NCBI GenBank assembly: GCA_003141835.1
Contig: PLNR01000006.1
Span: 142,558 to 206,557, forward strand
Reading direction: 5' to 3'
DNA: 64,000 bases
DNA from: Candidatus Omnitrophota bacterium
GTDB lineage: Bacteria; Omnitrophota; Gorgyraeia; Pluralincolimonadales; Pluralincolimonadaceae
Shown here: one piece after another, positions 9,251 through 64,000 of the stretch
Numbering within the stretch: the stretch's first letter is position 1
How the letters are laid out: the number at the start of each line of letters is the position of its first letter
Translations under genes and position numbers: made by a program
Notes under the pieces: generated by a model
What the model saw: the letters and a program-made list of their open reading frames with translations, nothing else
Databases searched by the model: none
What the model was told of the DNA's origin: nothing

Positions 9251-9998
9251 CCGTTATCGCAAAATCCGCATGGACGACCGCGAAGACCTTCTTCTCGAGC
9301 GATGAGGTGTCGTTACTGCCCCAGTCCGAGACCTCGGTCGAATTGACCGGCGTTATCTGGAAGACGCCCATATCCGCCGAGCGTATCCTGCCGACCTTGT
9401 TGCCGGACGCCGAGGCGATCCGTTCGGCCCGTTTCTTCGCGTCCGCGGAGGCCGCGCCGAGCATCTCGAGCTTCAGCTCGGCCAGCTTGGTGTAAAAATA
9501 CTGCGGCGGGTACGAAACGAACCGTATATCCTGCTCGATGAGCCCGGTCGATTCGCGCGACACGGCGGTTATCTTGGCGACGTCAGCCGAGCGCACTTCT
9601 ATCACCTGGCTGAGGTCGTAGGCCTCGATCTCGTTGGTGGCGATGCCCTTCTCGTTCTTCTTGTAGATGACTGTCGTCACCACCTGCGAAACGATCATCT
9701 CGCCCTCGGTTATCCCCTTGGACGCGAGGTAAGCCCTGACCTTGGCCGTGTCCTCTTTTAATTTGGCGAACGCGTCCTTCATCTGTGGGTCCCGCGCCGA
9801 GAACTCGGCCGTCCAGACCGCGTAATCCGATGTTATCCTCTTCTCGGCGGAGCCGGTTACGTTTATCACCTCGGCCGAGGCCTTCTTGAACTTCACCATC
9901 CCGTTGGTCAATATCACCGCGGAACCGATCGCCGCCACTACAAAACATATCCCCAAGATCACTATCTGCGCATTACGCAGGAAACCGTACTTCTCCAT
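9246..9998 (-). CDS. SIMPL-domain (DUF541) periplasmic protein
   Basis: 250 aa, N-terminal TM/signal segment, overall SIMPL-like architecture. Confidence 0.55.
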   Translation of the reverse strand: MEKYGFLRNAQIVILGICFVVAAIGSAVILTNGMVKFKKASAEVINVTGSAEKRITSDYAVWTAEFSARDPQMKDAFAKLKEDTAKVRAYLASKGITEGEMIVSQVVTTVIYKKNEKGIATNEIEAYDLSQVIEVRSADVAKITAVSRESTGLIEQDIRFVSYPPQYFYTKLAELKLEMLGAASADAKKRAERIASASGNKVGRIRSADMGVFQITPVNSTEVSDWGSNDTSSLEKKVFAVVHADFAITE

Positions 9999-10070
9999 CT
10001 CTCTCCCCTTTACATCTTTTTATTCCCGTTTTATCTTTACCGCTTGCCCGGCATCATTGTTTGATCTTCA

Positions 10071-10421
10071 TCACCTCCCCCATGCTATACCGGTGCAAAC
10101 AAAATCACGCAATCTTATATTCTCTTTTACAGGCACAGCCTCAAGTTTAATAGTAAAACCGACATAACGCAAGACCTTTTCCAGCGTCTCCATACTGCTG
10201 AATTCACCATTCTCGATCTTCGATATATGTTGTTGGGTAACACTGATCTTCTTCGCCAGTTGTCCCTGCGTGAGTTTGTGGTCGATGCGGTAGCGGATGA
10301 TGGGTATAACAATCTTTAATTTTTGCTGGCTTATCTCCCACCGCTTCCTGAAATCCGGATTTTTCTTCAGCTCCTCGATATGCTCATTAACACTCATTCC
10401 TAAATGAATATTTCTTTTCAT
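10071..10421 (-). CDS. HTH XRE-family antitoxin (HigA-like)
   Basis: LTQGQLAKKISVTQQHISKIENGE helix-turn-helix. Overlaps the upstream toxin gene by 4 nt. Confidence 0.65.
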   Translation of the reverse strand: MKRNIHLGMSVNEHIEELKKNPDFRKRWEISQQKLKIVIPIIRYRIDHKLTQGQLAKKISVTQQHISKIENGEFSSMETLEKVLRYVGFTIKLEAVPVKENIRLRDFVCTGIAWGR

Positions 10422-10816
10422 ATTCCCTCCCTTTGGCTACTAATAGATATCTTACGTCTTTGTCTGGCCAATGAAATTTCTTTAAGTGGCATTTTTGCGC
10501 TCTTCTTGACAAACGCGTTTGTCATAATGGCTCTGTTCTCCCAAAAGAAATATAATATTCTGATTGTGCCAGCTTCGCTTTGAAATCTTAATTCGAATAT
10601 ATCATCGCCGATATATTTTGAATACGGTTGTTTTAACTCCCTTCCTAATTCTTCGAGCAATCTTTGAATATAAGCAAATTTATCCTGTGTTTTTGATTCA
10701 AACGACTCTATGAATTCCTTTACCGGCATCCTTCCTGAACTTAAACTGTAATAGAAACAGTTAAATCTTCCCACTCTCGCCTCCTTAACTTTACAACCAT
10801 TTAGTTGTATTGTCAA
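10418..10816 (-). CDS. RelE/ParE-superfamily toxin (HigB / Gp49-like). True start possibly the internal Met (MPVKEF...).
   Basis: IFELRFQSEAGTIRILYFFWENRAIMTNAFVKKSAKMPLKEISLARQR matches addiction-module killer proteins. It sits upstream of the XRE antitoxin. Confidence 0.6.
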   Translation of the reverse strand: MTIQLNGCKVKEARVGRFNCFYYSLSSGRMPVKEFIESFESKTQDKFAYIQRLLEELGRELKQPYSKYIGDDIFELRFQSEAGTIRILYFFWENRAIMTNAFVKKSAKMPLKEISLARQRRKISISSQREGI

Positions 10817-10908
10817 TACGTCTTTTTACTGCCCTTATTGTAATAGACGTATAAAGAAGGCATTTTCTTTCAAAATTATTTTTATAAGGGCGTGGATGGA
10901 GGACTGCC

Positions 10909-12120
10909 CTAAACTTGGTATTCTTCGCCGTCAGTTAGGATTTTGACGTTCTGGAATAGTTTGGGATATCTCTCGGCTTCAAAGGTATGGATGGGGATAA
11001 GGACGCGGGGATTAAGGGCCTTGGCGAAGGCCTGGAGGTCCTCGATGATAGCGTGGCCGCTGGTATGTACCGGCTCGATTATCAGACCCTCGCGCTCACA
11101 ATATGCTTTGAATTCATCGGTCAGATATCCCTGCCACATCGAATAAATTATCTTGGCGCCGCGCGCGCCATCGAGTTCCTTCACCGCGATCGGGAAAAAG
11201 GAATTATCGCGCGCCAGCATAAGTATCCTGTTTTTCATGCGGGCGATCTCGAATAGATCGATCTTTCGCTTGTTATAGACAAAAAGCAAATCCCTGTACC
11301 CGGCGCTTTCTAAACATTTGGCATGGTACCCAAGGAATTTTACCCTGATATTCTTCCAATTAAACTGCGGTATATTTTTAGACACCTTTCTCAGCTTATC
11401 CAATATAAACGCGGTATAAAGGTCTATCACGAATACCGAATCCGTCTTCAAGCATGCCCTGTAAGCCGAAACGATCCTGTCGATGTTCTGGGACGAGGCA
11501 AATAGAAAGGTGATCTCCTTCCTCTCTTCCAATATCCGGGCGATCCGCGCCTCGACCTCTTTCTCGTCTTTATACTCCTGCGCGCCCCTGCCGAGCATCG
11601 AGCCCTCCATTATCAGGCAATCAATATCCTTCGGCGGGGCTTCTAACATCATCTTGAATAACGCGCTCTTCCTCCCGTGGCCGCGGAAATCGCCGGAATA
11701 GAATATCCTCTTGCCTTCGCCCTCCACAAGGAAAGTAAGCGCGTCAAACGCGGAATGGTCGACCTGATACGGCGTCACCGTCATGTCCCCAACGACAAAA
11801 GGCTTTTTTGGCTTTACGATGCGCGTGTTTATCTTGCCGGTCTTGTTCGGCGTGAATATATTGGACACCTCTATCAGCTCTTTTGCCCCCTGGCTCATAT
11901 AAACGGGGATATCCGGATGGATGTGGCCCAGCAAGCCATAATGGTCCATGTGGGAATGTGAGATAAGTACGGCATCCGGGAGGATTTTGGGATAGGATGG
12001 CTTTTCGATCTCTTCGTCCAGCGGCTGGCCGAAATCTATCAGGAGCCGCGTTTTATCTGTCTTTAACTCGACGCAGCTACCGCCGATTTCCTGAGTGCCG
12101 CGGTGGATTGTTACTTGCAC
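10909..12120 (-). CDS. MBL-fold metallo-hydrolase (possible nuclease)
   Basis: HSHMDHYG metallo-beta-lactamase motif near the N-terminus, 403 aa. Start overlaps the upstream gene by 1 nt. Confidence 0.65.
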   Translation of the reverse strand: MQVTIHRGTQEIGGSCVELKTDKTRLLIDFGQPLDEEIEKPSYPKILPDAVLISHSHMDHYGLLGHIHPDIPVYMSQGAKELIEVSNIFTPNKTGKINTRIVKPKKPFVVGDMTVTPYQVDHSAFDALTFLVEGEGKRIFYSGDFRGHGRKSALFKMMLEAPPKDIDCLIMEGSMLGRGAQEYKDEKEVEARIARILEERKEITFLFASSQNIDRIVSAYRACLKTDSVFVIDLYTAFILDKLRKVSKNIPQFNWKNIRVKFLGYHAKCLESAGYRDLLFVYNKRKIDLFEIARMKNRILMLARDNSFFPIAVKELDGARGAKIIYSMWQGYLTDEFKAYCEREGLIIEPVHTSGHAIIEDLQAFAKALNPRVLIPIHTFEAERYPKLFQNVKILTDGEEYQV

Positions 12121-12965
12121 TATTTAATCCTGCTAAAATCAATCTCGTTTTTTATATGTAATATTTTTATCTCGGGATGCTTTTTCTTAAGCCCATTTAT
12201 GCTCTGCTCAGCCAAACCTGAATACCCCCCAACGACAACAATTCCCAAAACACCTTCGACAATATCGATCTCCAAACCGTCTGGCAACAGCCCGAGTCCC
12301 CGCTTCTGTAATGCATTCTTTACGTAACACTCCTTATACTGCTGAAAGTTCTTTGTAATACGCTCAATATAGCCGCTAAGTTGCGTAAAGACCTCTTCCT
12401 TCAATTCCAAATTATTTCCCAGCTTAACTTCCAAGACGCAGAACTGATATTTGCCTGCATTATTCCTCTTGAGCGCAAGAAGATCCATCTTAGTAGAGCT
12501 GTCCCGGTCAACAACCTGCCGGTCGATTATTATCAAATCATCTCTGTTAGAATTGTCGGTCAAGATCATTTGCTCGAAAACGATCTCCTCTTGAAACTGA
12601 ACTTCTTTAACCTTTTGTCCCATCAATAATAAATTTCTCGTGCTAAAAAAGGAATGCAATTTCTTATGCCCAACGGTGAATAAATAGTACTCCTTCTCCA
12701 TAGCGTTCTTGAACCGTTTAACCGCAGGGCCCATACCTTCTACAAATTTACGATGGATTCTGATTTCGTACAGATTTTTTGACTTACGGTAGGATATTTT
12801 CCCAAGGCTGTTGCCTTTATAATAAAGATTTAGGTAATCGTCGCGTATCTGCAAACCATACTCAAAACCAGATTGCTTGATCTTATTAATCAAGAAGTCG
12901 AAATCCCTCTTCACGGCCTCGTATGTTTCCTGAGATAGATATCGGCTTATAACTTTATTTTTCAT
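12120..12965 (-). CDS. hypothetical protein with PD-(D/E)XK-like signature (candidate nuclease)
   Basis: 281 aa, AT-rich. MDLLAL...CVLEVK fits a D-x(n)-E-x-K pattern. Unrelated to anything I recognise. Confidence 0.4.
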   Translation of the reverse strand: MKNKVISRYLSQETYEAVKRDFDFLINKIKQSGFEYGLQIRDDYLNLYYKGNSLGKISYRKSKNLYEIRIHRKFVEGMGPAVKRFKNAMEKEYYLFTVGHKKLHSFFSTRNLLLMGQKVKEVQFQEEIVFEQMILTDNSNRDDLIIIDRQVVDRDSSTKMDLLALKRNNAGKYQFCVLEVKLGNNLELKEEVFTQLSGYIERITKNFQQYKECYVKNALQKRGLGLLPDGLEIDIVEGVLGIVVVGGYSGLAEQSINGLKKKHPEIKILHIKNEIDFSRIK

Positions 12966-12992
12966 TTTAGGTTTCCTGCGAACCTTTTATTT

Positions 12993-13053
12993 GGGGACAC
13001 TCTGCAGCCTGTCCCTTTTTGACACGCCCCTATTACCTACTATTACCTATTAC
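12993..13053. repeat. island repeat unit U1 (GGGGACAC...TGTCCCTTTTTGACACGCCCC plus TATTACC tandem)
   Basis: Shares the core GGGGMSKTKTCAAAAAGGGACA (reverse orientation) with U2, U3 and the helicase-gene element. It sits between the Dam-like MTase stop and the 281-aa gene start. Confidence 0.5.
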
Positions 13054-13101
13054 TTCTTCGTGATTTTGCCTTTTTTACGCCCATAAAATAGCAACCTTAG
13101 G

Positions 13102-13989
13102 TTATACAAATAATGTAAAACAATGTTTATTTTTGATTTTGGGTAAGATACAATTCTCGCTGGATATTAATAATTCCTTACCGATGCTAGCTTTATGAAT
13201 AGAATATCTTATTTTAAGATTATTCCGCTGAACGCCTTTGTAAATATTCTTAATAAATGCTATGTTATCATATGAAAGAACCCATTTTAGATCGCTATTT
13301 TCTTTCAAATAATTGCTTAGTCTTTCGTGTTCTTGGGCCTCCATGTAATATTTATATAAATCTCTTCCCTTTTGATAATACGGAGGATCCAAATATATTA
13401 AATAATTTGATTTATCAGGACTTTTTAACGCTAAGTAAGTTTTTAAAAAATCGACTCCATCCTTATTAAATAGCTCAATTTTACTTTTATATTTTGATAT
13501 CAGTTCGATTCTTTTAATTAAATTTATTTTATTAAACCTTGCGTCAATCTTCCATTCGCCATCCTGCTTCATGCCACCTACTGGACCTGACGATAGTATT
13601 CCAGAACGGTTGCAACGATTTAGATAGAAGCTAGCAAACCCAACATCAATATCTGAACCATGTTTTATAAATTCTTTGTCCTTCAATAAATCTCTTTGTA
13701 TTTTCCACTCGCTAATTTTAACAGGTGTAGAAATTACGCGCGCAATAAAACCATCTGTTTGATTTAAAACTGCTTTCCAGAATTTATATATTCGTTCATC
13801 CAAATCGTTAAGTACGATTTTGTCAACGAACCCTTTCGTCAACAAATTTAAAGCTGCGCCAGCTCCTCCAGCAAAAGGTTCAATATACGCTACGTTGACT
13901 AATTCATTGCTTTGGATCACTTTATTTAAATATTTCCACAAAGCTGTTTTTCCGCCGGGGTATCTCAAGGGACTTATATGATTATCCAT
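13102..13989 (-). CDS. DNA adenine methyltransferase, Dam-like (alpha class)
   Basis: EPFAGGAGAALN (motif I) near the N-terminus and YLDPPYY (motif IV, DPPY) in the C-terminal half. AT-rich. Confidence 0.8.
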   Translation of the reverse strand: MDNHISPLRYPGGKTALWKYLNKVIQSNELVNVAYIEPFAGGAGAALNLLTKGFVDKIVLNDLDERIYKFWKAVLNQTDGFIARVISTPVKISEWKIQRDLLKDKEFIKHGSDIDVGFASFYLNRCNRSGILSSGPVGGMKQDGEWKIDARFNKINLIKRIELISKYKSKIELFNKDGVDFLKTYLALKSPDKSNYLIYLDPPYYQKGRDLYKYYMEAQEHERLSNYLKENSDLKWVLSYDNIAFIKNIYKGVQRNNLKIRYSIHKASIGKELLISSENCILPKIKNKHCFTLFV

Positions 13990-15374
13990 TATTCGTTCTT
14001 TTTTAGAACATGTCTCAAATATTCAGATAATTTTTTCCACTTATCTGAAAGCACTGTTCTGTCAGGTATATAACTAGCGTTATGTACGAAAGAGTTCAAA
14101 TCGTCCAATATTGGTTCTTTTCCTTTAAAATCGACATATTTTTTAAGCGCTTTCTTAATTTGCGGATCCATCGCTATATCATTTTCACTAAGCCAAAGTA
14201 GCATTCCCTTAAGTGAGGGCCACGTATCTGGTAAACTTTTCCCGCTTTTTAACTTAGTTTCATCGCGGTTTTTATATTTTTTTAATTCCCCGCTTCTCTC
14301 CATGTAAATATACGTGCCCAATTCTACTAATAGTCTAAAAGTTACCGCATGGGCATTTGGATATGTTTTAGGGTTGAGCCCGTGCAGTTCTCTAAATATA
14401 TCTTTGATTCGCTCATTATTGATTTCACATATAATCGCATCTGGGATAATCGACTTAAACTGAAGTGTTTTAGGTATTTGGTTTTTTATGGCGGATTTTT
14501 TGAAATCTCCAGGATTTGAAAGATAATCTTCTATTGCATCTGCTGTACTTAAATTTCTTGAATTGACTTCTTTATTGGCAATATCCTCAACAATCTGTTT
14601 TAACTTTATATCAGTCTTTTTCTCATTTTCTATAAACTCAATATTTCCATTATCGTTGTAAGTAACTTTTAGATAATCTTTACCTGGCTTGCTTTGAACA
14701 ACTCTATCTAGGGTAGTAAATTCAAATTTTTCTTTTTCGTTTCCGTTTTCTAGACTTAATAATTGATCTTTAATTTTTTTCGAAATAGGTAGTTTGTGTG
14801 CTCTCTGAATGAAGTTGTAACTTACAATTAATTTTTTTATTTTATTAGCTTTGACACCAACGGATAGCGATAAATTATTGATTGTTTCTCCATCTCTAAT
14901 ACGCCGGTAATAAAATATGGCTTGATTTATCGGCAGCCACTTTTTAATAGGTATTTCTGTATGTCTACCTGCAATAATATAATCAGCATCTTTCCTGCTT
15001 GGAGCAAGTACCCCGTTTATTTTTTTAATACTACCTGATTTAGCATTTTTTGCAATTGCCTTAAATCGTTTTTGGTACTTATCAGGTGCGATGCTGGGAT
15101 TCAAAAGAAGCTTGCATGCTGCAAGCCGCCTATTTCCTTCTAATACATATAGTTTTCCTTCTATATCACAAACTATTATAACCTCTGTTGGTAAAAAACC
15201 TCTTTCTGCTATTCTTAACGATAGATCTATAATATTCTCATATTTAATTAGCTCTTCAAGAATGTTTTCTTCTGATAACTCTTCTAAATTAGCAAATCGC
15301 GGGTTTTCAGGGTCTAGTAACAAATTCTCTACATCATACTTATCTATCTTCCAATCCGAATAATTTGTTGGCAT
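13989..15374 (-). CDS. ParB N-terminal (ParB/Srx nuclease-like) domain protein, 461 aa
   Basis: LYVLEGNRRLAACKLLLN matches the ParB GxRR box. Long lysine-rich C-terminal region of unknown function. Its stop overlaps the MTase start (13989). Confidence 0.6.
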   Translation of the reverse strand: MPTNYSDWKIDKYDVENLLLDPENPRFANLEELSEENILEELIKYENIIDLSLRIAERGFLPTEVIIVCDIEGKLYVLEGNRRLAACKLLLNPSIAPDKYQKRFKAIAKNAKSGSIKKINGVLAPSRKDADYIIAGRHTEIPIKKWLPINQAIFYYRRIRDGETINNLSLSVGVKANKIKKLIVSYNFIQRAHKLPISKKIKDQLLSLENGNEKEKFEFTTLDRVVQSKPGKDYLKVTYNDNGNIEFIENEKKTDIKLKQIVEDIANKEVNSRNLSTADAIEDYLSNPGDFKKSAIKNQIPKTLQFKSIIPDAIICEINNERIKDIFRELHGLNPKTYPNAHAVTFRLLVELGTYIYMERSGELKKYKNRDETKLKSGKSLPDTWPSLKGMLLWLSENDIAMDPQIKKALKKYVDFKGKEPILDDLNSFVHNASYIPDRTVLSDKWKKLSEYLRHVLKKNE

Positions 15375-15427
15375 TTAAACCTCCTCAAGTAATAAAATAT
15401 CTTCCGCCCTTATTTGAAATTTAACTA

Positions 15428-15500
15428 GGGGGACGCATACCTTATGACACTGTGCAACCTGTCCCTTTTTGAAGAGTCCTCTATTCTACTTCTATTATTT
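15428..15500. repeat. island repeat unit U2
   Basis: GACACTGTGCAACCTGTCCCTTTTTGAAGAG...CTATTCTACTTCTATTATTT is collinear with U1. Confidence 0.45.
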
Positions 15501-15514
15501 GCTATGGGAACTTC

Positions 15515-15575
15515 GGGGACGTGTCATTTTGGGGCACCCTGCAATCTATTTCTTTTTGACACGTCACTAATATTT
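15515..15575. repeat. island repeat unit U3 (bounded by 9-bp inverted repeat GACGTGTCA / TGACACGTC)
   Basis: GGGGACGTGTCATTTTGGGGCACCCTGCAATCTATTTCTTTTTGACACGTCAC. Confidence 0.45.
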
Positions 15576-15619
15576 TGAATTGATCTGCTCAGAGCTTATC
15601 TAGATTGGAGTATTAGTAA

Positions 15620-16561
15620 TCAAATGCCTTTCAAAAGCTTAGAAAATCCTGCGGTATTAACGAAATAATTGCTCTTATTCTTTTTAAGATATTTATATAT
15701 ATCTTTTTTTGCTTTTGACATCTTATTGTCTGTTGATGCTTCAATTAGTTCGTTAAACATAATTCCATCCAAAAATGCTACATACGAAACATTTTTGTCT
15801 GTGTATTTCAATAAATCCACTATTTCTACAATTGCACCGTATTGCCCTCCACCGCCACCTTTTTTATGTTTATGCTCAACAACATACATATTAGGCCCTT
15901 TTTGAATATAACAATCTGGCATCTTACCTTGTTTTGATTTACTCCATTCAAATTTAATATTACGTTTGTTACAAATGTCTTTAAAATATTTTTTCTCTCC
16001 TTTATCAGGCAATAAATAAAACGAATCCTTTTTGATATCATCGCTTCTTTTATATCTTTTGAAACCTTCCCGCTCAACAAGCATAATAATCTTATTTGCT
16101 CCTGTTGAGCCCCCTCTTTTATGCGAATAATTGTCAGATAGTACTTGTAAAACAATATTAGAATATCCATGAGATGAATACATCGAATGCCTATCCTTAA
16201 TATATTTAATTAACAATTCCCGTAGTAATTTTTTTCTTTCTTGTTCTTTTTCGGCACGCAGTACAGAATATGGCATATCCCATACCATTAAATATTGCGA
16301 GAATGCCGTATAATTCATATGATGTATTTTGAATAATATTGAATCAATCTCCCTGATAATTTCATCATCCTGCTTCTTGGTGAGCTTACCATCCAAAGTA
16401 TGGTACGTTGTTATTAGATCAATTAACCTTTCATTGCTATTAATAATCTTGTTTTTATCTTTTGCGTTTTTCGTTATTACAATAATTTCTTTTTTATTAG
16501 CATCATCAAAAATCTGCTCTCTATTCTTTAACGAGTATTCGAATAAGAGGATGTTGTCCAT
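15620..16561 (-). CDS. hypothetical protein; candidate restriction endonuclease partner of the adjacent MTase
   Basis: 313 aa, AT-rich, no recognisable motifs. Overlaps the upstream NPPY methyltransferase gene by 34 nt. Confidence 0.35.
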   Translation of the reverse strand: MDNILLFEYSLKNREQIFDDANKKEIIVITKNAKDKNKIINSNERLIDLITTYHTLDGKLTKKQDDEIIREIDSILFKIHHMNYTAFSQYLMVWDMPYSVLRAEKEQERKKLLRELLIKYIKDRHSMYSSHGYSNIVLQVLSDNYSHKRGGSTGANKIIMLVEREGFKRYKRSDDIKKDSFYLLPDKGEKKYFKDICNKRNIKFEWSKSKQGKMPDCYIQKGPNMYVVEHKHKKGGGGGQYGAIVEIVDLLKYTDKNVSYVAFLDGIMFNELIEASTDNKMSKAKKDIYKYLKKNKSNYFVNTAGFSKLLKGI

Positions 16562-17613
16562 AATAATTCTTCTCCATAAATATTATTATACGCATTTTCG
16601 AGTATGGCCCTTGCAGTTTCATAATCTAGGCGCCTTCTTCTGCAACCATTTTTCATATTTCCTTTAAAGGGCGACAAAAGCACATCATTCGTTTTGTCTC
16701 TATAATCTGTAAGAATGTTATTGCATTTCTCCAAAAACAATTCTAGCTTATCATGCTTTAATTTATCCAATTTAATTATTGTTATTAGCCTAGAGCTTAT
16801 CTTAATCCCCTTTAAATCATAATCAAGTTCTTCCTTTTTCATGAATTTTATCATGGATTTAGGATTTGTTGTGTCGACCGCTCTTAAGGCAATATTTCCA
16901 CTAGTATCATTAAAAAATATCCTAAGGTATTTTGCGGGCCTTAATCTCAATTTTTCATAATAGTCCAGATTATTTAAATATTTATCATTTTTATACACCT
17001 TGATTTCCGAATATTCTTTTGCTCTGCCATCAAAGCAAAGAACACATACCGGCGTCTCTGTATCATCAAAACAATTTTCTTCTATTATAGTAATCGAATT
17101 TAATCGATATTTATGCTTAAAATTACTATTTATGAAAGTCTCTGGAACAATTGCTACAACGTATTCTTGCGCTTGCAGCATTTTTTCAAGTGCAATTAAA
17201 TATAAATCGCCATATTCAGAACTAATAAAATAATTTTCAGTACTATCATAGATACCTTTTCTTTTAGCACTATAATTACTTAGGTAGGGCGGATTTGTAA
17301 TTATTATGGCATTTTTTCTTGTGGGAATTTTTAATAAACTATCATTCACTGGGAAATTCTTTTTAGAGTCTATGTCCAAACCAAACGCTTTGGTAATTCC
17401 GAAATTATCGGAGAGTTTTAACAAATCGCCGTCTCCAGCATATGGATCATAAATCTCACTACAACCGCTGGATATCACGAATTCTTTAATATGAGTTTTT
17501 AGCCATTTATCTTTTTTAGTAAAATATTGTCCTAATATTTTTTGGTTCATATAATGCCTCTGACAATATTGCGTTTTTTCGTCTCTAACATGGACTTTTA
17601 TCTCGCTTGTCAT
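16528..17613 (-). CDS. N6-adenine (or N4-cytosine) DNA methyltransferase, gamma-class order (motif I then NPPY)
   Basis: DPYAGDGDLL (SAM-binding) followed about 40 residues later by IIITNPPY. Confidence 0.7.
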   Translation of the reverse strand: MTSEIKVHVRDEKTQYCQRHYMNQKILGQYFTKKDKWLKTHIKEFVISSGCSEIYDPYAGDGDLLKLSDNFGITKAFGLDIDSKKNFPVNDSLLKIPTRKNAIIITNPPYLSNYSAKRKGIYDSTENYFISSEYGDLYLIALEKMLQAQEYVVAIVPETFINSNFKHKYRLNSITIIEENCFDDTETPVCVLCFDGRAKEYSEIKVYKNDKYLNNLDYYEKLRLRPAKYLRIFFNDTSGNIALRAVDTTNPKSMIKFMKKEELDYDLKGIKISSRLITIIKLDKLKHDKLELFLEKCNNILTDYRDKTNDVLLSPFKGNMKNGCRRRRLDYETARAILENAYNNIYGEELLWTTSSYSNTR

Positions 17614-17661
17614 GTGTATTTTAACACCTCCCTATTCATGCGTCAATGCAAGGTTTCTTTG

Positions 17662-17710
17662 CTTCCTTACCTATATAGACGCAAGTTAGGAAGATTTTCT
17701 TTCAACTATT
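17662..17710. repeat. about 50-bp hairpin repeat, copy B (partner of 9200-9250)
   Basis: CTTCCTTACCTATATAGACGCAAGTTAGGAAGATTTTCTTTCAACTATT. Identical 18-bp tail and TATAGACGC loop. Confidence 0.6.
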
Positions 17711-17764
17711 TTTTAGAGTTTCCCCTATAACTCCTCACCTTTCATCGGCGTTGCACTCGGGTCC

Positions 17765-17992
17765 CTAATAATTAAAAATATCTTTAATAGCAAAATTATC
17801 TTCCGGCTTTAGCGCGCGAAGGGCATTCAGAATCTTATGTTGGATATTAAGGGTTAATCGCCTTCCCTTGCGCCCCTTTTGCACCATCTTATGCGACAAC
17901 TGCTCAGTGGAAATCTTAACAAGGTCAGAGTTTGAAAAACCTAGCCGCACCATGATCCTGTCAAGCGGCTGGATGCCTAATTCTTCCTTCAT
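17765..17992 (-). CDS. small hypothetical protein (75 aa), basic, possibly DNA-binding
   Basis: Its ATG overlaps the TGA of the upstream NYN gene (ATGA). Flanked by a roughly 30-bp direct repeat. Confidence 0.35.
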   Translation of the reverse strand: MKEELGIQPLDRIMVRLGFSNSDLVKISTEQLSHKMVQKGRKGRRLTLNIQHKILNALRALKPEDNFAIKDIFNY

Positions 17993-18360
17993 ATTTTACT
18001 CCAAAACTCCTCGCATTTCATCGGCGTTGCACGCGCATCCTTCGCATAAAAATACAGCGAGCGGTCGGAGGAGACGACACGCAGGTTGCGGCGCTGGCGC
18101 GGCGGGATCTGGTCGATGTGTTTCTTTATGTAAGAGTCGGCGTTCCGGGCCGCGACGATATGCAGTTTCGCCGTGCTCCTGTTCGGTATATCGAGATATT
18201 CATTCTTGCTGTCGAATACAAGGGTGATGGGGTCGGCGTGGGTCTCCTGGAACTTCTCCAGGATAGCGATCAGGTGCATGGCGCCGGCCAGGGCGTCGTC
18301 ATGATCTATCCCTGAGCCTTCGTGGCGGACCATGTTCCAACCGTCTATAAGTATAGGCAT
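17989..18360 (-). CDS. NYN/PIN-like (YacP-like) domain protein
   Basis: N-terminal ILIDGWNMV and acidic residues are typical of YacP/NYN nucleases. Confidence 0.5.
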   Translation of the reverse strand: MPILIDGWNMVRHEGSGIDHDDALAGAMHLIAILEKFQETHADPITLVFDSKNEYLDIPNRSTAKLHIVAARNADSYIKKHIDQIPPRQRRNLRVVSSDRSLYFYAKDARATPMKCEEFWSKI

Positions 18361-61525: not shown

Positions 61526-62098
61526 TTAGAACGACCAGTTTACCAGGACCATGAACTCAAACGGTTTCTTGTTGCCGTTATAGTTTCCGAGGCCTATCTG
61601 CAGGCCGTCGAGGGATTTCGTATAGTTGACGAACCCGAACTGGAGCCCGTGCATCTCTTTGGCATAATTAACGCCGCCGAACTGGAGGCCCTTGAACGAT
61701 CCTTCGCTATAATTCACCATGCCAAGTTCCATTCCCGCAGATTGCCCTTTCGAAACGTTCAGGAACCCGTACTGGAGGCCATGCATAAATCCTTCATCCC
61801 AGTTCACGAAACCCAGCTGCACGCCGCTGAAATCGCCTTCCGTAATATTTGCGGCGCCCCATTGCAGGCCTACGCCGCGCCCCTTGGTGCGGTTGATGAG
61901 GCCGAGGCTTATGCCGCCAACATCCTGGTTGGCGCCGTAGATAAGGCTCAGGCTCAGGCCATTTATCGACTCATTCTCCGGGACGAGCTGGATGGGATCG
62001 AAAATAGCCAACTGGATAGGCTTTGCTTCTGCGGCTTGCGCTAACTGCGGCATTAACACCATTACCGATAATACAAAAAACAGTACCTTTTTTGTCAT
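61526..62098 (-). CDS. secreted repeat protein with about 19-aa periodic GLQ(F/Y)G-x-(V/L)N motifs
   Basis: Signal peptide. At least 7 repeats (GVGLQWGAANI, GVQLGFVNW, GLQYGFLNV, GMELGMVNY, GLQFGGVNY, GLQFGFVNY, GLQIGLGNY). Confidence 0.5.
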   Translation of the reverse strand: MTKKVLFFVLSVMVLMPQLAQAAEAKPIQLAIFDPIQLVPENESINGLSLSLIYGANQDVGGISLGLINRTKGRGVGLQWGAANITEGDFSGVQLGFVNWDEGFMHGLQYGFLNVSKGQSAGMELGMVNYSEGSFKGLQFGGVNYAKEMHGLQFGFVNYTKSLDGLQIGLGNYNGNKKPFEFMVLVNWSF

Positions 62099-62137: not shown

Positions 62138-62731
62138 CTATGCGGCTCCCCGCTTCTCCCGTTTCTTGTGTTTATAGAGAGTGGTGTAAGATACGCCGAT
62201 AATGATGCAGAGCGGGCTGAGGTAAGAATAGAAAGAACCCGGTAAGGCAGCGGGATAGAATAACCGGAAAGCGCTGAAAGCTGTCGGGATTAAAAGCAGC
62301 GCTCCCCAGAAAATGGCGATGAACCGGCAACCGCTGATCATATCTTCATTATTCCATTGATCTTTCGGCAGTTCTTCCCGCGCATATTGCAATGTGAACG
62401 GTTTGCCTGTCAGCACCGTGAACCAAATAACACCGGTCAGGAAGCCGTTTGAAATGATCGCCATATGTTGTGCCAGCCACATCCACTTGAATCCGTAGAA
62501 TGATATTGTGCAAACAAGAAAAAACATTATGGTAGCCCACTGCAAAATGAAGCCCCTGCGCAGCTCTTTCCAGCCGAAAATAACGGACATGACCAGGCAT
62601 ATCGCTACTGCTCTCTCTAAATGGCCCCAGCTATCTGTCGGCAGGATCAAAAACAGGATCCAGGGCAAGAACCCCAGGAGGAATTTCGCGATGTCCAATA
62701 ATTCATTAACCATTCGGATCTCCTTTTTCAA
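62138..62731 (-). CDS. hypothetical membrane protein (5-6 TM)
   Basis: Hydrophobic 197-aa ORF. Preceded by a terminator hairpin plus RBS. Confidence 0.4.
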   Translation of the reverse strand: MKKEIRMVNELLDIAKFLLGFLPWILFLILPTDSWGHLERAVAICLVMSVIFGWKELRRGFILQWATIMFFLVCTISFYGFKWMWLAQHMAIISNGFLTGVIWFTVLTGKPFTLQYAREELPKDQWNNEDMISGCRFIAIFWGALLLIPTAFSAFRLFYPAALPGSFYSYLSPLCIIIGVSYTTLYKHKKREKRGAA

Positions 62732-62813
62732 TCATTTTACTCCAAACAAAAACCCTCCGCAATGTTTAATTGCAGAGGGTAACTATAACGGCAATGCCGC
62801 TAGCTGTCATAGG

Positions 62814-63203
62814 TCAATCGAGCGCTTTAATCGATTCGGCCCCGTTCTTACCATTAGTTATGCTCGAGCCGTCCGTTATGGTAGAGTATTTAACTTCAAC
62901 GCGTTCGCCCATCTTGAGAAGCATGGCTCCGTGCGTTTTTCCGCCATCGTTCAGGTCTTTGCCGGAAGCGTCGGTCACGGACGTGGTCCCCATCACAAAA
63001 AATTCGACTTTCTCGCCGCTGTCGGGAGCTACCGTCATTTTGCAATACGGTCCGCTCGGTGACCTGCTCATAGTCATCTTCTTAGATTCTATTTTGCCTG
63101 CAAGGGTCTTGGCCTCATCGGCAGCCTTTAGGGACGGCTGGCTGATGAAACACAAGGACCCGGAAAATGCGACAGCGATTAATGCAAAAACTATTTTTTT
63201 CAT
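62814..63203 (-). CDS. secreted hypothetical protein
   Basis: Signal peptide MKKIVFALIAVAFSGS. 129 aa. Confidence 0.4.
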   Translation of the reverse strand: MKKIVFALIAVAFSGSLCFISQPSLKAADEAKTLAGKIESKKMTMSRSPSGPYCKMTVAPDSGEKVEFFVMGTTSVTDASGKDLNDGGKTHGAMLLKMGERVEVKYSTITDGSSITNGKNGAESIKALD

Positions 63204-63435
63204 TCCTCCCTCCTTTTCCTAATTTTACTCCAAACAATACCCCGCTCGGGTCGCTTCGCTCCCTGAGAGAAAACCCTGATGGTTTTCTCTCAGCGCCGCA
63301 CAACCTTTAGCGGGACTGCTCTCTTTCCTTCCGCCGGGATGCTTACGGGACAGAGGGAAAACGGTCTTTTCCCTCTGTAACTCCCTATTTCTCGGCGGTG
63401 TCGCCAAATTTTATTACTCTTGGCGCGAGAAAATT

Positions 63436-63475
63436 TGGCTCCCCCGCCTGGGCTCGAACCAGGGACACGTGGATT
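63436..63475 (-). other. tRNA-like 3' fragment (T-arm GGTTCGAGCC plus 7-nt acceptor strand plus discriminator plus encoded CCA) with no recognisable 5' half
   Basis: Minus-strand read ...GTGTCCCTGGTTCGAGCCCAGGCGGGGGAGCCA. I could not find a matching 5' acceptor strand (TCCCCCG), D-arm or paired anticodon stem within 170 nt upstream. Confidence 0.35.
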
Positions 63476-63648
63476 ACAAGTACCCCGGTATTGCTACCGG
63501 ACTTGGACTATATCATCTCCTACGGCTTTACGTTTAGGAGGCAGGTGCATAGTCTCTGAACCTTCCCTTTATTTCTAAAGGGCTCGGCTGCTGATTACCC
63601 CAGAGGGGCTTCCAGGATGCCACAATGTGGCATCTCCGTCAGCTAATA

Positions 63649-63999
63649 CTACGCTGCGGACAATTCTCCTGCTTTTTCAATCCCGATTTCTCGGGAAAGC
63701 TGCGCTTGGACATGAGTCTCTCGGTGACAATTGGCGCACAGCAATACACATTTGTCCAATTCTTCTTTTACTTTCGTCCAACTTCTCGTATATCCTTTTG
63801 AGGATATGCTGAAGTCTTTCTTGGAAGAATCGACGTGATGGAACTCCAAAGCATCGCTGCAACGGTCGTAACCGCATACTTCACAGCGACCGCCTTTATA
63901 CTCAATAGCCATTTGCCTTATCTTTCTCCGTCTTTTATGGACGGCGGCTATTATGTATTGCCGGCGATCTTTGTAAGTCCGCGTATCGCGTTTTGCCAT
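63649..63999 (-). CDS. HNH endonuclease
   Basis: CEVCGY...HHVD...CANCH HNH/zinc-finger motif. 116 aa. Confidence 0.7.
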   Translation of the reverse strand: MAKRDTRTYKDRRQYIIAAVHKRRRKIRQMAIEYKGGRCEVCGYDRCSDALEFHHVDSSKKDFSISSKGYTRSWTKVKEELDKCVLLCANCHRETHVQAQLSREIGIEKAGELSAA

Positions 64000-64000
64000 T

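Follow-up and report, generated by a model that had tools for sequence, protein, structure and literature searches.

A tRNA-Asn(GUU) gene split in its anticodon loop by an HNH-carrying group I intron in a Candidatus Omnitrophota bacterium

Introduction

Group I introns in bacterial transfer RNA (tRNA) genes were classically known from tRNA-Leu, tRNA-fMet, tRNA-Ile and tRNA-Arg, and have since been expanded to 21 settings in a catalogue whose seed alignment contains a tRNA-Asn intron, Pam37.Asn.4Ug, and which describes no encoded protein (Williams, 2020, bioRxiv). Here we study a 64,000-nucleotide (nt) stretch of DNA from a Candidatus Omnitrophota bacterium (GenBank assembly GCA_003141835.1, contig PLNR01000006.1, positions 142,558 to 206,557 of the forward strand), which we refer to as the window, and in particular the last few hundred nucleotides of it, where an earlier note made from the letters alone had described the 3' part of a tRNA close to an HNH endonuclease gene. 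We find that positions 63436-63476 of the minus strand are the second part of a tRNA-Asn(GUU) gene that is split in the anticodon loop by a 585-nt group I intron carrying the HNH gene, a reading to which we assign a probability of roughly 0.9.

The Pam37 intron and the window element share their gene (tRNA-Asn), an insertion point after nucleotide 4 of the anticodon loop (CUGU/UAA), the U at the last position of the 5' exon (U-1), the terminal intron guanosine (omegaG) and the guide GCAGCC followed by the P2 hairpin; Pam37 also has the P7 insert gaggagcc..aaccaauaa that we see in the Nitrospira and Acidobacteria members of the family described here. Its author chose a short form that avoids loop insertions, whereas in the window copy L1, the loop of P1, holds a 116-amino-acid (aa) HNH open reading frame (ORF) and P4 a 45-nt insertion. 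Because gene, site, U-1, omegaG and guide are the same, and the P7 insert recurs in part of the family, the element belongs to the catalogued Asn.4Ug class; it is a clean new example of a catalogued kind of mobile intron, not a new type of system, and the known framework for group I introns is unchanged by our findings.

Other described systems resemble the locus in part. The tRNA-fMet group I intron of Synechocystis PCC 6803 encodes the endonuclease I-Ssp6803I (Bonocora and Shub, 2001, as cited in PMC3984707), and in the literature that we searched it is the only characterised endonuclease-bearing bacterial tRNA intron that we found cited. It differs from the present element in its host gene, and in that the activity of I-Ssp6803I has been shown experimentally whereas the HNH enzyme here is predicted. 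The small introns of the IC3 subgroup in Azoarcus tRNA-Ile and Anabaena tRNA-Leu likewise build a short P1 out of bases of the anticodon loop, cap P2 and P9 with GNRA loops, and show the same core sequences in J6/7-P7 (GGU.CAGAGACUA) and J8/7-P7' (GAUAUAGUCC), but they lack an ORF and their P1 loop is just a few nucleotides long, whereas P1 here closes across ~350 nt of coding sequence. In phages, homologues of the HNH protein stand free in tRNA arrays, as does segB of phage T4, one of the free-standing endonucleases of 'intronless homing' (PMC2330249, PMC2988022); SegB, however, is a GIY-YIG enzyme that cuts a tRNA intergenic region, whereas the present family is of the HNH type and has its specific tie to tRNA-Asn. 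Finally, one locus described below (L042), known here from its gene arrangement alone, looks like the intermediate predicted by the model of collaborative, or trans, homing (PMC2988022, PMC2790892). Our search of the literature for this HNH family, its link to tRNA-Asn, and tRNA-Asn introns in Omnitrophota or Nitrospira returned nothing beyond the Williams preprint, and absence from that literature is no proof.

Results and discussion

Exons, boundaries and identity of the split tRNA

Between 63468 and 63436 the minus strand reads GTGTCCCTGGTTCGAGCCCAGGCGGGGGAGCCA, in which we recognise the end of a variable loop (GUGUC), a T arm (CCUGG-UUCGAGC-CCAGG), the 3' strand of an acceptor stem (CGGGGGA), the discriminator G73 and an encoded CCA (63438-63436), so that the canonical tRNA 3' end described in the earlier note is indeed present. 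From tRNA numbering the 3' exon is predicted to begin UAAUCCAC, directly after G63477, with UAA as anticodon-loop nucleotides and UCCAC as the 3' strand of the anticodon stem. A start at this point implies an NUU anticodon and, together with U1-A72 and G73, both of which E. coli tRNA-Asn has too, a tRNA-Asn gene. A 25-nt probe for the tRNA 3' end has a single match in the window, even when 3 mismatches are allowed (0 expected). Run with its default settings, ARAGORN reports no tRNA anywhere in the 64 kb, an Rfam scan of the window at gathering thresholds gives no match, and the fragment is therefore truly without a 5' partner inside the window, as had been claimed.

The partner lies just beyond the end of the window. 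A 128-kb metagenome contig from ENA (L001) contains an exact match to the HNH protein, and its reverse complement equals the window with 0 mismatches over 10,352 nt. The contig runs on past the window into a 5' exon (Table 1), which when joined to the 3' exon gives a 76-nt tRNA that ARAGORN calls tRNA-Asn(gtt), a cloverleaf with a GUU anticodon. The intron mode of ARAGORN (-i), which the earlier note had proposed running, calls the split gene directly as tRNA-Asn [9904,10564] on L001, i(36,585), that is, with a 585-nt intron at position 36. The intron occupies L001 9939-10523, equivalent to window positions 64061-63477, and is inserted as CUGU|UAA between anticodon-loop positions 35 and 36, with U-1 and omegaG. 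Of the explanations that the note had put forward, it is the first that holds, namely a tRNA gene interrupted by an intron that carries the HNH gene and has its 5' exon outside the window; its suggestion of a tRNA-derived structured RNA is not needed.

The boundary can be misread. The last intron bases and the first exon bases (63474-63480, minus strand, CUUG|UAA) mimic a 7-nt anticodon loop, and the same mimicry is seen in relatives (L003-L081), with GUG|UAA and UCG|UAA; because the intron 3' end plus UAA imitates the loop in this way, ARAGORN in intron mode mislabels about one third of these tRNA-Asn genes as Thr, Pro or Tyr. A tRNA-Thr(UGU) read from the apparent loop CUUGUAA was rejected, since its anticodon stem pairs at 3 of 5 positions and the real 5' exon gives CUGU|UAA. 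The T arm and CCA also prompted us to consider a two-piece or permuted transfer-messenger RNA (tmRNA); neither ARAGORN nor Rfam finds one, and the acceptor stem is that of tRNA-Asn.

A group I core with covariation

The Rfam group I model (Intron_gpI, RF00028), a covariance model of the kind that the earlier note had recommended, matches positions 63484-63757 of the minus strand with 48.8 bits (E 4.6e-11 in E-value mode), and the P4'-P6-P7-P3'-P8-P7'-P9 portion aligns to the model with high posterior probability. Homologous introns at the same site exceed the gathering score in all 20 loci tested (52-94 bits). The low score of the window copy coincides with its P4 insertion: comparable insertions at the same site occur only in L002, L008 and L069 and not in the other 72 loci, and these copies have the lowest Rfam scores, L002 and L069 being lowest of all.

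To measure the support for each helix we counted a hand-drawn structure on an alignment of 76 intron cores, with 500 shuffles as control. Pairing is found in 89.1% of cells against 72.2% in the shuffles, and double changes in 600 cells against 180, spread over 33 of the 46 pairs; for neither measure does any of the 500 shuffles reach as high. When the partners are slid by 1-3 columns, pairing falls to 33-45%. Compensatory pairs are seen in P2 (6/6), P9 (6/6), P3 (5/7), P8 (5/6) and P6/P6a (4/6), while P7 is invariant. The distal part of P4 and P5 score poorly in this count, but only because MAFFT misplaces them around the insertion in the reference row; across loci the P4 pairs are UA in 76/76, and CG in 61 with GC in 15. 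The element has a group I core with covariation, the P3/P7 pseudoknot included. Two other pairings were considered and rejected. A P4 drawn by hand from GCUGA (63639-63643) and UCAGC lies in what the 76-locus alignment places in the lineage-specific insertion, with P4 instead formed by UG^CUGG and UCAGCA, and an alternative 5' strand of P3, GCAG in the last codons of the ORF, gives 4 pairs without comparative support, whereas covariation backs GCAGGAG.

Covariation also reaches the splice sites. The guide GCAG pairs with exon CUGU to form a U-G wobble at the 5' splice site, and the GCAGC guide, U-1 and omegaG (the G before UAA) are invariant in 76/76 loci. In 72 of these the guide pairs with exon GGCUGU over 6 bp, and the P1 extension, two bases on either side of the splice site, covaries (GC/GC, AA/UU, AG/CU, GU/AC). 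P1 closes across the whole ORF, which places the HNH gene in L1; the 61 nt of the intron that lie outside the window hold the 5' strand of P1 and the Shine-Dalgarno sequence of the ORF.

Table 1. Coordinates of the split tRNA-Asn gene, its intron and the downstream hairpins (window positions unless a contig is named)
Feature	Position	Strand	Description
tRNA-Asn 5' exon TCCCCTGTAGCTCAGTTGGTAGAGCAGTGGACTGT	L001 9904-9938 (= 64062-64096)		35 nt; outside the window, 62-96 nt past its end
Group I intron, in-window portion	63477..64000	-	524 of 585 nt; first 61 nt beyond the window end
HNH endonuclease ORF	63649..63999	-	116 aa; in the P1 loop (L1)
P1 3' strand, internal guide GCGCAG	63700..63705	-	GCAG with exon CUGU; GC with intron bases 1-2
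P2 hairpin UCCCGA-GAAA-UCGGGA	63681..63696	-	GNRA tetraloop; 99.1% paired
P3 5' strand GCAGGAG	63666..63672	-	pairs with CACCUGC at 63541-63547; 90% paired
Two-hairpin insertion in P4 5' strand	63616..63660	-	45 nt; between UG (63661-63662) and CUGG (63612-63615)
P4 5' part 2 CUGG, J4/5, P5 CCCC-UCU-GGGG, J5/4 UAA, P4 3' strand UCAGCA	63589..63615	-	
P6/P6a GCC...CCCUUUA-GAAA-UAAAGGG...GGU	63560..63588	-	97% and 92% paired; compensatory changes
Catalytic core	63506..63559	-	J6/7 and P7 5' strand UCAGAGACUA 63550-63559; P3 3' strand 63541-63547; P8 63517-63540; J8/7 63511-63516; P7 3' strand UAGUC 63506-63510
P9 hairpin CCGGUA-GCAA-UACCGG	63485-63500	-	99.6% paired
Intron 3' tail GGUACUUG	within 63477..63500	-	ends in omegaG at 63477
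tRNA-Asn(GUU) 3' exon	63436..63476	-	41 nt; UAA, UCCAC, variable loop, T arm, acceptor 3' strand, G73, encoded CCA
Trailer hairpin 1	63394..63448	-	acceptor 3' strand, CCA and AAAUUUU pair with AAAAUUUGGCGACACCGCC; 16/19 pairs
Trailer hairpin 2	63350..63378	-	perfect 12 bp, 5-nt loop, no U tail
Trailer hairpin 3	63263..63293	-	perfect 13 bp, 5-nt loop, no U tail

The HNH protein and its overlap with the ribozyme

The HNH gene stands where the earlier note had put it, but the spacing of about 110 nt that the note gave does not: the stop codon lies 172 nt upstream of the first base of the tRNA part. The residues C39, C42, H54, H55, C88, C91, H92 and H96 (CxxC, HH, CxxCH..H) are invariant in 27/27 sequences, HNH families of PHROG match the protein (E 4e-30 and 6.5e-25), and among PDB sequences the best match is to a group II intron maturase, in its HNH domain (6me0, E 0.003); an NCBIfam scan of the protein gives no match. 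In the AlphaFold model (predicted local distance difference test, pLDDT, 82) a long N-terminal helix is followed by a beta-beta-alpha unit. I-Ssp6803I of Synechocystis is a PD-(D/E)XK enzyme and not an HNH nuclease. Over 78 core codons, the ratio of nonsynonymous to synonymous divergence (dN/dS) is 0.03-0.10 in six pairs with unsaturated synonymous sites, which means that the HNH protein is under purifying selection.

The gene and the ribozyme share sequence. The last ~19 HNH codons run through P1', P2, J2/3, P3 and J3/4 into the P4 insert, where the stop codon (63649-63651) falls in the loop of the first hairpin. A subset of relatives reads the same RNA (AGCGCAGCUUCC...) in another frame, giving ...SAAS.GNRG as against ...QLPRE...; for the C-terminus at 63649-63705 (minus strand) the frame variant is ...AQSAASTGNRG and a stop, as against ...AQLPRETVVEKAGE..., and some relatives have long read-through tails that span the whole ribozyme. 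Since the same RNA can be read in an alternate frame, it is the RNA and not the peptide that constrains this C-terminal stretch. With the ORF running over P1', P2 and P3, translation and splicing would be expected to interfere with each other.

Distribution among bacterial genomes

Homologues of the HNH protein number 2,124 in the protein collection, the best 120 being 67-100% identical, and in species-representative genomes we confirmed 559 HNH loci, of which the best 80 were analysed. The labels of these 80 span more than 10 phyla and include Omnitrophota, 'Planctomycetia', Nitrospirota, Elusimicrobiota, Acidobacteriota, Deltaproteobacteria, Aerophobetes, Edwardsbacteria, Melainabacteria, Patescibacteria, Clostridia, Binatia and others, and HNH conservation across phyla is 60-80%. 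Complete genomes that have the element include CP070684.1, CP070807.1, OY970063.1 and OY970389.1. All 80 loci are tied to tRNA-Asn. At 77 of them the intron mode of ARAGORN recognises a split tRNA, 76 of these with the HNH gene inside the same-site intron, and the remaining 3 of the 80 are cut by contig ends yet keep the tRNA-Asn 5' exon. Every one of the 76 analysable loci is split at this site, with a 5' exon that ends ...G(G/A)CUGU and a 3' exon that begins UAA(C/U)C after G. Among the loci examined, the association of this HNH family with the tRNA-Asn site is exclusive.

The remaining one of the 77 split genes, in an Omnitrophica metagenome-assembled genome (MAG), is arranged differently (L042, 2501-3294): its intron, at the same site, is ORF-less (312 nt, Rfam 61 bits), and the HNH homologue stands free ~120 nt upstream of the tRNA-Asn. 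As observations on individual loci, the intron-bearing tRNA-Asn of an Aerophobetes MAG (L013, 1-2735) follows directly after 23S and 5S ribosomal RNA genes, and a c-di-GMP-I-GGC riboswitch sits just downstream of the tRNA in L022 (3142-3224).

Presence and absence among close relatives

The uninterrupted junction GCAGTGGACTGTTAATCCACGTGTCCC is present in 54 metagenome contigs. On the upstream side of the tRNA, three of these intron-less contigs (L110, L131 and L106) show synteny with L001 at 83-84% identity over 2.3-3.2 kb, and their homology jumps from L001 9938 to 10524, that is, without exactly positions 9939-10523; in L110 and L131 the 3' exon is identical at 41/41 positions. The intron is thus a precise presence/absence polymorphism. 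Over the flanking 2.2 kb the intron-bearing relative L002 is 92.8% identical to intron-less L110 and only 82.9% identical to intron-bearing L001, which means that the intron has been gained, or precisely lost, within the clade.

Free-standing relatives in phages

A scan of viral contigs likewise gave 559 confirmed HNH homologues, and again we analysed the best 80 (L136-L215), which are 50-72% identical over residues ~19-96. Of these viral loci, 77/80 lie in tRNA arrays, with 514 tRNAs in total. An intact tRNA-Asn(GTT) is the nearest tRNA in 51/80, usually 9-22 nt downstream of the match, and a tRNA-Asn lies within 400 nt in 61/80. The phage homologues are free-standing genes without the C-terminal tail that P1', P2 and P3 encode in the intron form. 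Cultured phages show the pattern too: in a KVP40-like vibriophage (Vibrio phage VH1_2019, L216 1201-1554) the homologue abuts tRNA-Asn, and in Bacillus phage Bastille (L217 850-1678) a tRNA-Asn gene flanks the annotated HNH endonuclease on either side. The adjacency to tRNA-Asn does not hold in an E. coli jumbo phage, and one viral contig (L136) has the full intron arrangement.

These arrangements suggest a broader scenario, which we offer tentatively and at somewhat less than even odds: the HNH clade may consist of homing endonucleases dedicated to tRNA-Asn and caught in all three stages of collaborative homing, with tRNA-carrying phages spreading the intron across more than 10 phyla. Free-standing genes that abut an intact tRNA-Asn in phage tRNA arrays (KVP40-like vibriophages, Bastille and many jumbo-phage contigs) may represent the first stage, the free-standing gene beside an ORF-less intron in L042 the second, and the gene resident in the P1 loop, its C-terminal tail dual-coded by P1', P2 and P3, may be the third. 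Were there such a dedicated lineage, the overlap of ORF and ribozyme would make translation and splicing mutually exclusive.

Proposed mechanism

In the mechanism that we propose, transcription would produce a precursor of ~661 nt, made up of the 35-nt 5' exon, the 585-nt intron and the 41-nt 3' exon including CCA. The intron would fold into a ribozyme whose P1 is formed by exon CUGU and the first two intron bases with the guide GCGCAG ~357 nt downstream, and whose core is formed by P2-P9. An external guanosine would attack the 5' splice site, the terminal G (63477) would dock in P7, and exon ligation would restore the anticodon loop CUGUUAA. The gene held in the P1 loop, with its own Shine-Dalgarno sequence, would supply the 116-aa HNH nuclease; this protein would most likely cut or nick intron-less tRNA-Asn genes near the anticodon-loop sequence, and repair from an intron-bearing copy would copy the intron in (homing). 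From sequence, then, we infer both that the tRNA-Asn intron is self-splicing and that the HNH endonuclease is specific for the tRNA-Asn site.

Weighing the alternatives

Several observations weigh against a functional, homing group I intron. The Rfam score of the window copy is just below the curated threshold of 50. Its P1 has 4 exon pairs and 2 intron pairs only, a shortening that arises because tRNA position 31 is A, and its P4 is interrupted by the 45-nt insertion. On the protein side, the score for Pfam HNH, 19.9 bits, falls short of its cut-off of 21.4; where 6me0 has the middle Asn of the HNH motif, the residue aligned with it is an invariant Lys (K83), while N90 is invariant; and although the PDB neighbours in a fold search are all HNH nucleases, their E-values are at least 0.024 and none reaches 0.001, so that these weak matches serve as consistency evidence only. 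Finally, the proportion of synonymous differences (pS) between L001 and L002 is 0.36 in the HNH gene and 0.46-0.62 in the flanking genes. Because this is not clearly below the flanks, we do not claim a recent horizontal transfer; one between the L001 and L002 lineages was considered and dropped on these values, vertical descent with precise loss fitting equally well. The score, the P1 cut to 4+2 bp and the P4 insertion could also be taken to mean that the window intron is a decayed relic that no longer splices, with a tRNA-Asn pseudogene around it and the HNH gene as a passenger. This we regard as very improbable, since all core helices are intact in the window copy, the P4 insertion is common to L002 and keeps its second hairpin there despite sequence differences that include an indel, the exons are identical to those of L002 at 76/76 positions and the 3' part of the ribozyme at 159/172, and dN/dS of the HNH gene against L002 is 0.025.

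A reading without any intron, also raised in the earlier note, would make the fragment the remnant of an attachment (att) site: an element ending in the HNH gene would have integrated here and left a duplicate of the tRNA 3' end at its edge. The anticodon loop is a common crossover position for tRNA-targeting integrases, and it is in this loop that the fragment starts; the CCA end is the exact point at which synteny with the closest relative, L002, is lost, and what follows the tRNA differs from one relative to another. The chance of this being the case is nevertheless close to nil: the 5' half of this very tRNA, an exact match, stands 585 nt upstream with a group I intron filling the DNA in between, the window holds no second copy of the tRNA 3' end, and in syntenic relatives the same flanks enclose a gene without interruption. 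A genomic island at the tRNA 3' end was likewise rejected: the 3' end is not repeated in the window, and the downstream genes are partly syntenic in L131. Harder to dismiss, though still unlikely, is a reading that keeps the intron and asks what its ORF is for: the HNH protein would be kept mainly for a role other than homing, as a maturase or as a nuclease of benefit to the host, and the intron would by now be inherited essentially vertically. Purifying selection on the protein is unusually strong and its conservation extends across phyla, although a fixed homing endonuclease would be expected to decay; its synonymous divergence is similar to that of the flanking genes, and the C-terminus of the ORF is interwoven with P1', P2 and P3. 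A homing role for the HNH protein, on the other hand, is favoured by the patchy presence of the intron among close relatives, by the occupation of the same site in more than 10 phyla, and by the free-standing phage homologues, which adjoin an intact tRNA-Asn without the RNA-encoded tail and have no intron there in need of a maturase.

Implications for annotation

Default tRNA finders miss the split tRNA-Asn, as does Rfam at gathering thresholds, and the genome would therefore appear to be without a tRNA-Asn; the HNH gene, in turn, would be labelled a stray 'restriction endonuclease' or 'McrA', as it is in several database records. Beyond annotation, the locus is of interest because this bacterial tRNA intron carries an endonuclease and occupies one and the same site in more than 10 phyla; the dual-coded overlap of ORF and ribozyme and the free-standing phage relatives beside tRNA-Asn add to this. 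The HNH family may be a compact (~110 aa) site-specific nuclease for a universally conserved DNA sequence, and its free-standing and intron-borne members form a natural series for testing how mobile introns are assembled.

Hairpins downstream of the tRNA and neighbouring DNA

Downstream of the tRNA, the earlier note had described three perfect hairpins of 10-13 bp without U-tails. Two are perfect (12 and 13 bp), at positions 3-8 nt from those it gave, but the first has only a perfect 9-bp core (63430-63438 with 63404-63412) within an extended pairing of 63394-63412 with 63430-63448. No U tract follows any of the three, and neither a terminator-like site nor a sigma-70-like promoter was detected at them. 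The hairpins are more than chance would give: counting distinct perfect ones with stems of 10 bp or more, we find 6 in the whole 64 kb where shuffles have 0.2, and this trailer, whose 237-nt fold has z = -6.3, holds two of the six. Perfect stems without U tails in so strongly folded a region, together with a weak, sub-threshold Rfam match to Clostridiales-2 (21 bits against 58.6), could point to dispersed copies of a repeat of the repetitive extragenic palindromic (REP) kind, which the note had itself considered, or to a distinct structured non-coding RNA. We give this little credence: the hairpin sequences have no copies elsewhere in the 64-kb window, no Rfam family reaches threshold, and the hairpins have no counterpart in L002, L110, L131 or L106, where the tRNA is followed by unrelated hairpins and canonical hairpin-and-U-run terminators. 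Homology past the tRNA stops at the CCA end in L002 and 11 nt past the CCA in L131, and in L110 and L106 it does not extend into the trailer beyond a few bases. Lacking repeats in the window and absent from the nearest relatives, the hairpins are lineage-specific and not REP-like, nor are they part of the intron or of the mobile element. They probably act in termination, processing or stability, at the place where relatives have intrinsic terminators, and it would be most economical to read them as stem-loops, of a trailer or insulating kind, that separate the tRNA transcript from the transcription unit that follows.

The DNA just downstream of tRNA-Asn is a variable spot among the syntenic relatives. 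L002 has an AT-rich segment there (3065 onward), and L131 (2710 onward) has ~3.6 kb, as against 1.35 kb in the window, before synteny resumes at a gene for a 190-aa protein (61526-62098). In the window, a 22-nt direct repeat, GGG.T.TTGTTTGGAGTAAAAT on the minus strand, occurs at 63222-63243 and 62734-62755 (91% identical), each copy ~20 nt ahead of the start codon of one of the next two small genes (62814-63203 and 62138-62731), which have no Pfam match; its second copy comes directly after a canonical terminator, and the repeat may be a shared promoter or leader. On the other side of the tRNA, past the window end and between an oxidoreductase operon and the tRNA, L001 carries at 9836-9865 a 30-nt sequence, GTCGAAATCCCGCCTCAGCGGGATTGAAAC, with an 8-bp hairpin and a ATTGAAAC end, which resembles a clustered regularly interspaced short palindromic repeats (CRISPR) repeat and was seen in a single copy.

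Farther away, window positions ~10000-18000 form a low-GC island (31-41% GC, against ~52% elsewhere) that codes for a D12-class adenine methyltransferase, a protein with an Eco57I-like methylase domain and a metallo-beta-lactamase-fold protein, along with several ORFs without a Pfam match; a Fic protein is encoded at the edge. The island was probably acquired, with a role in restriction-modification or defence.

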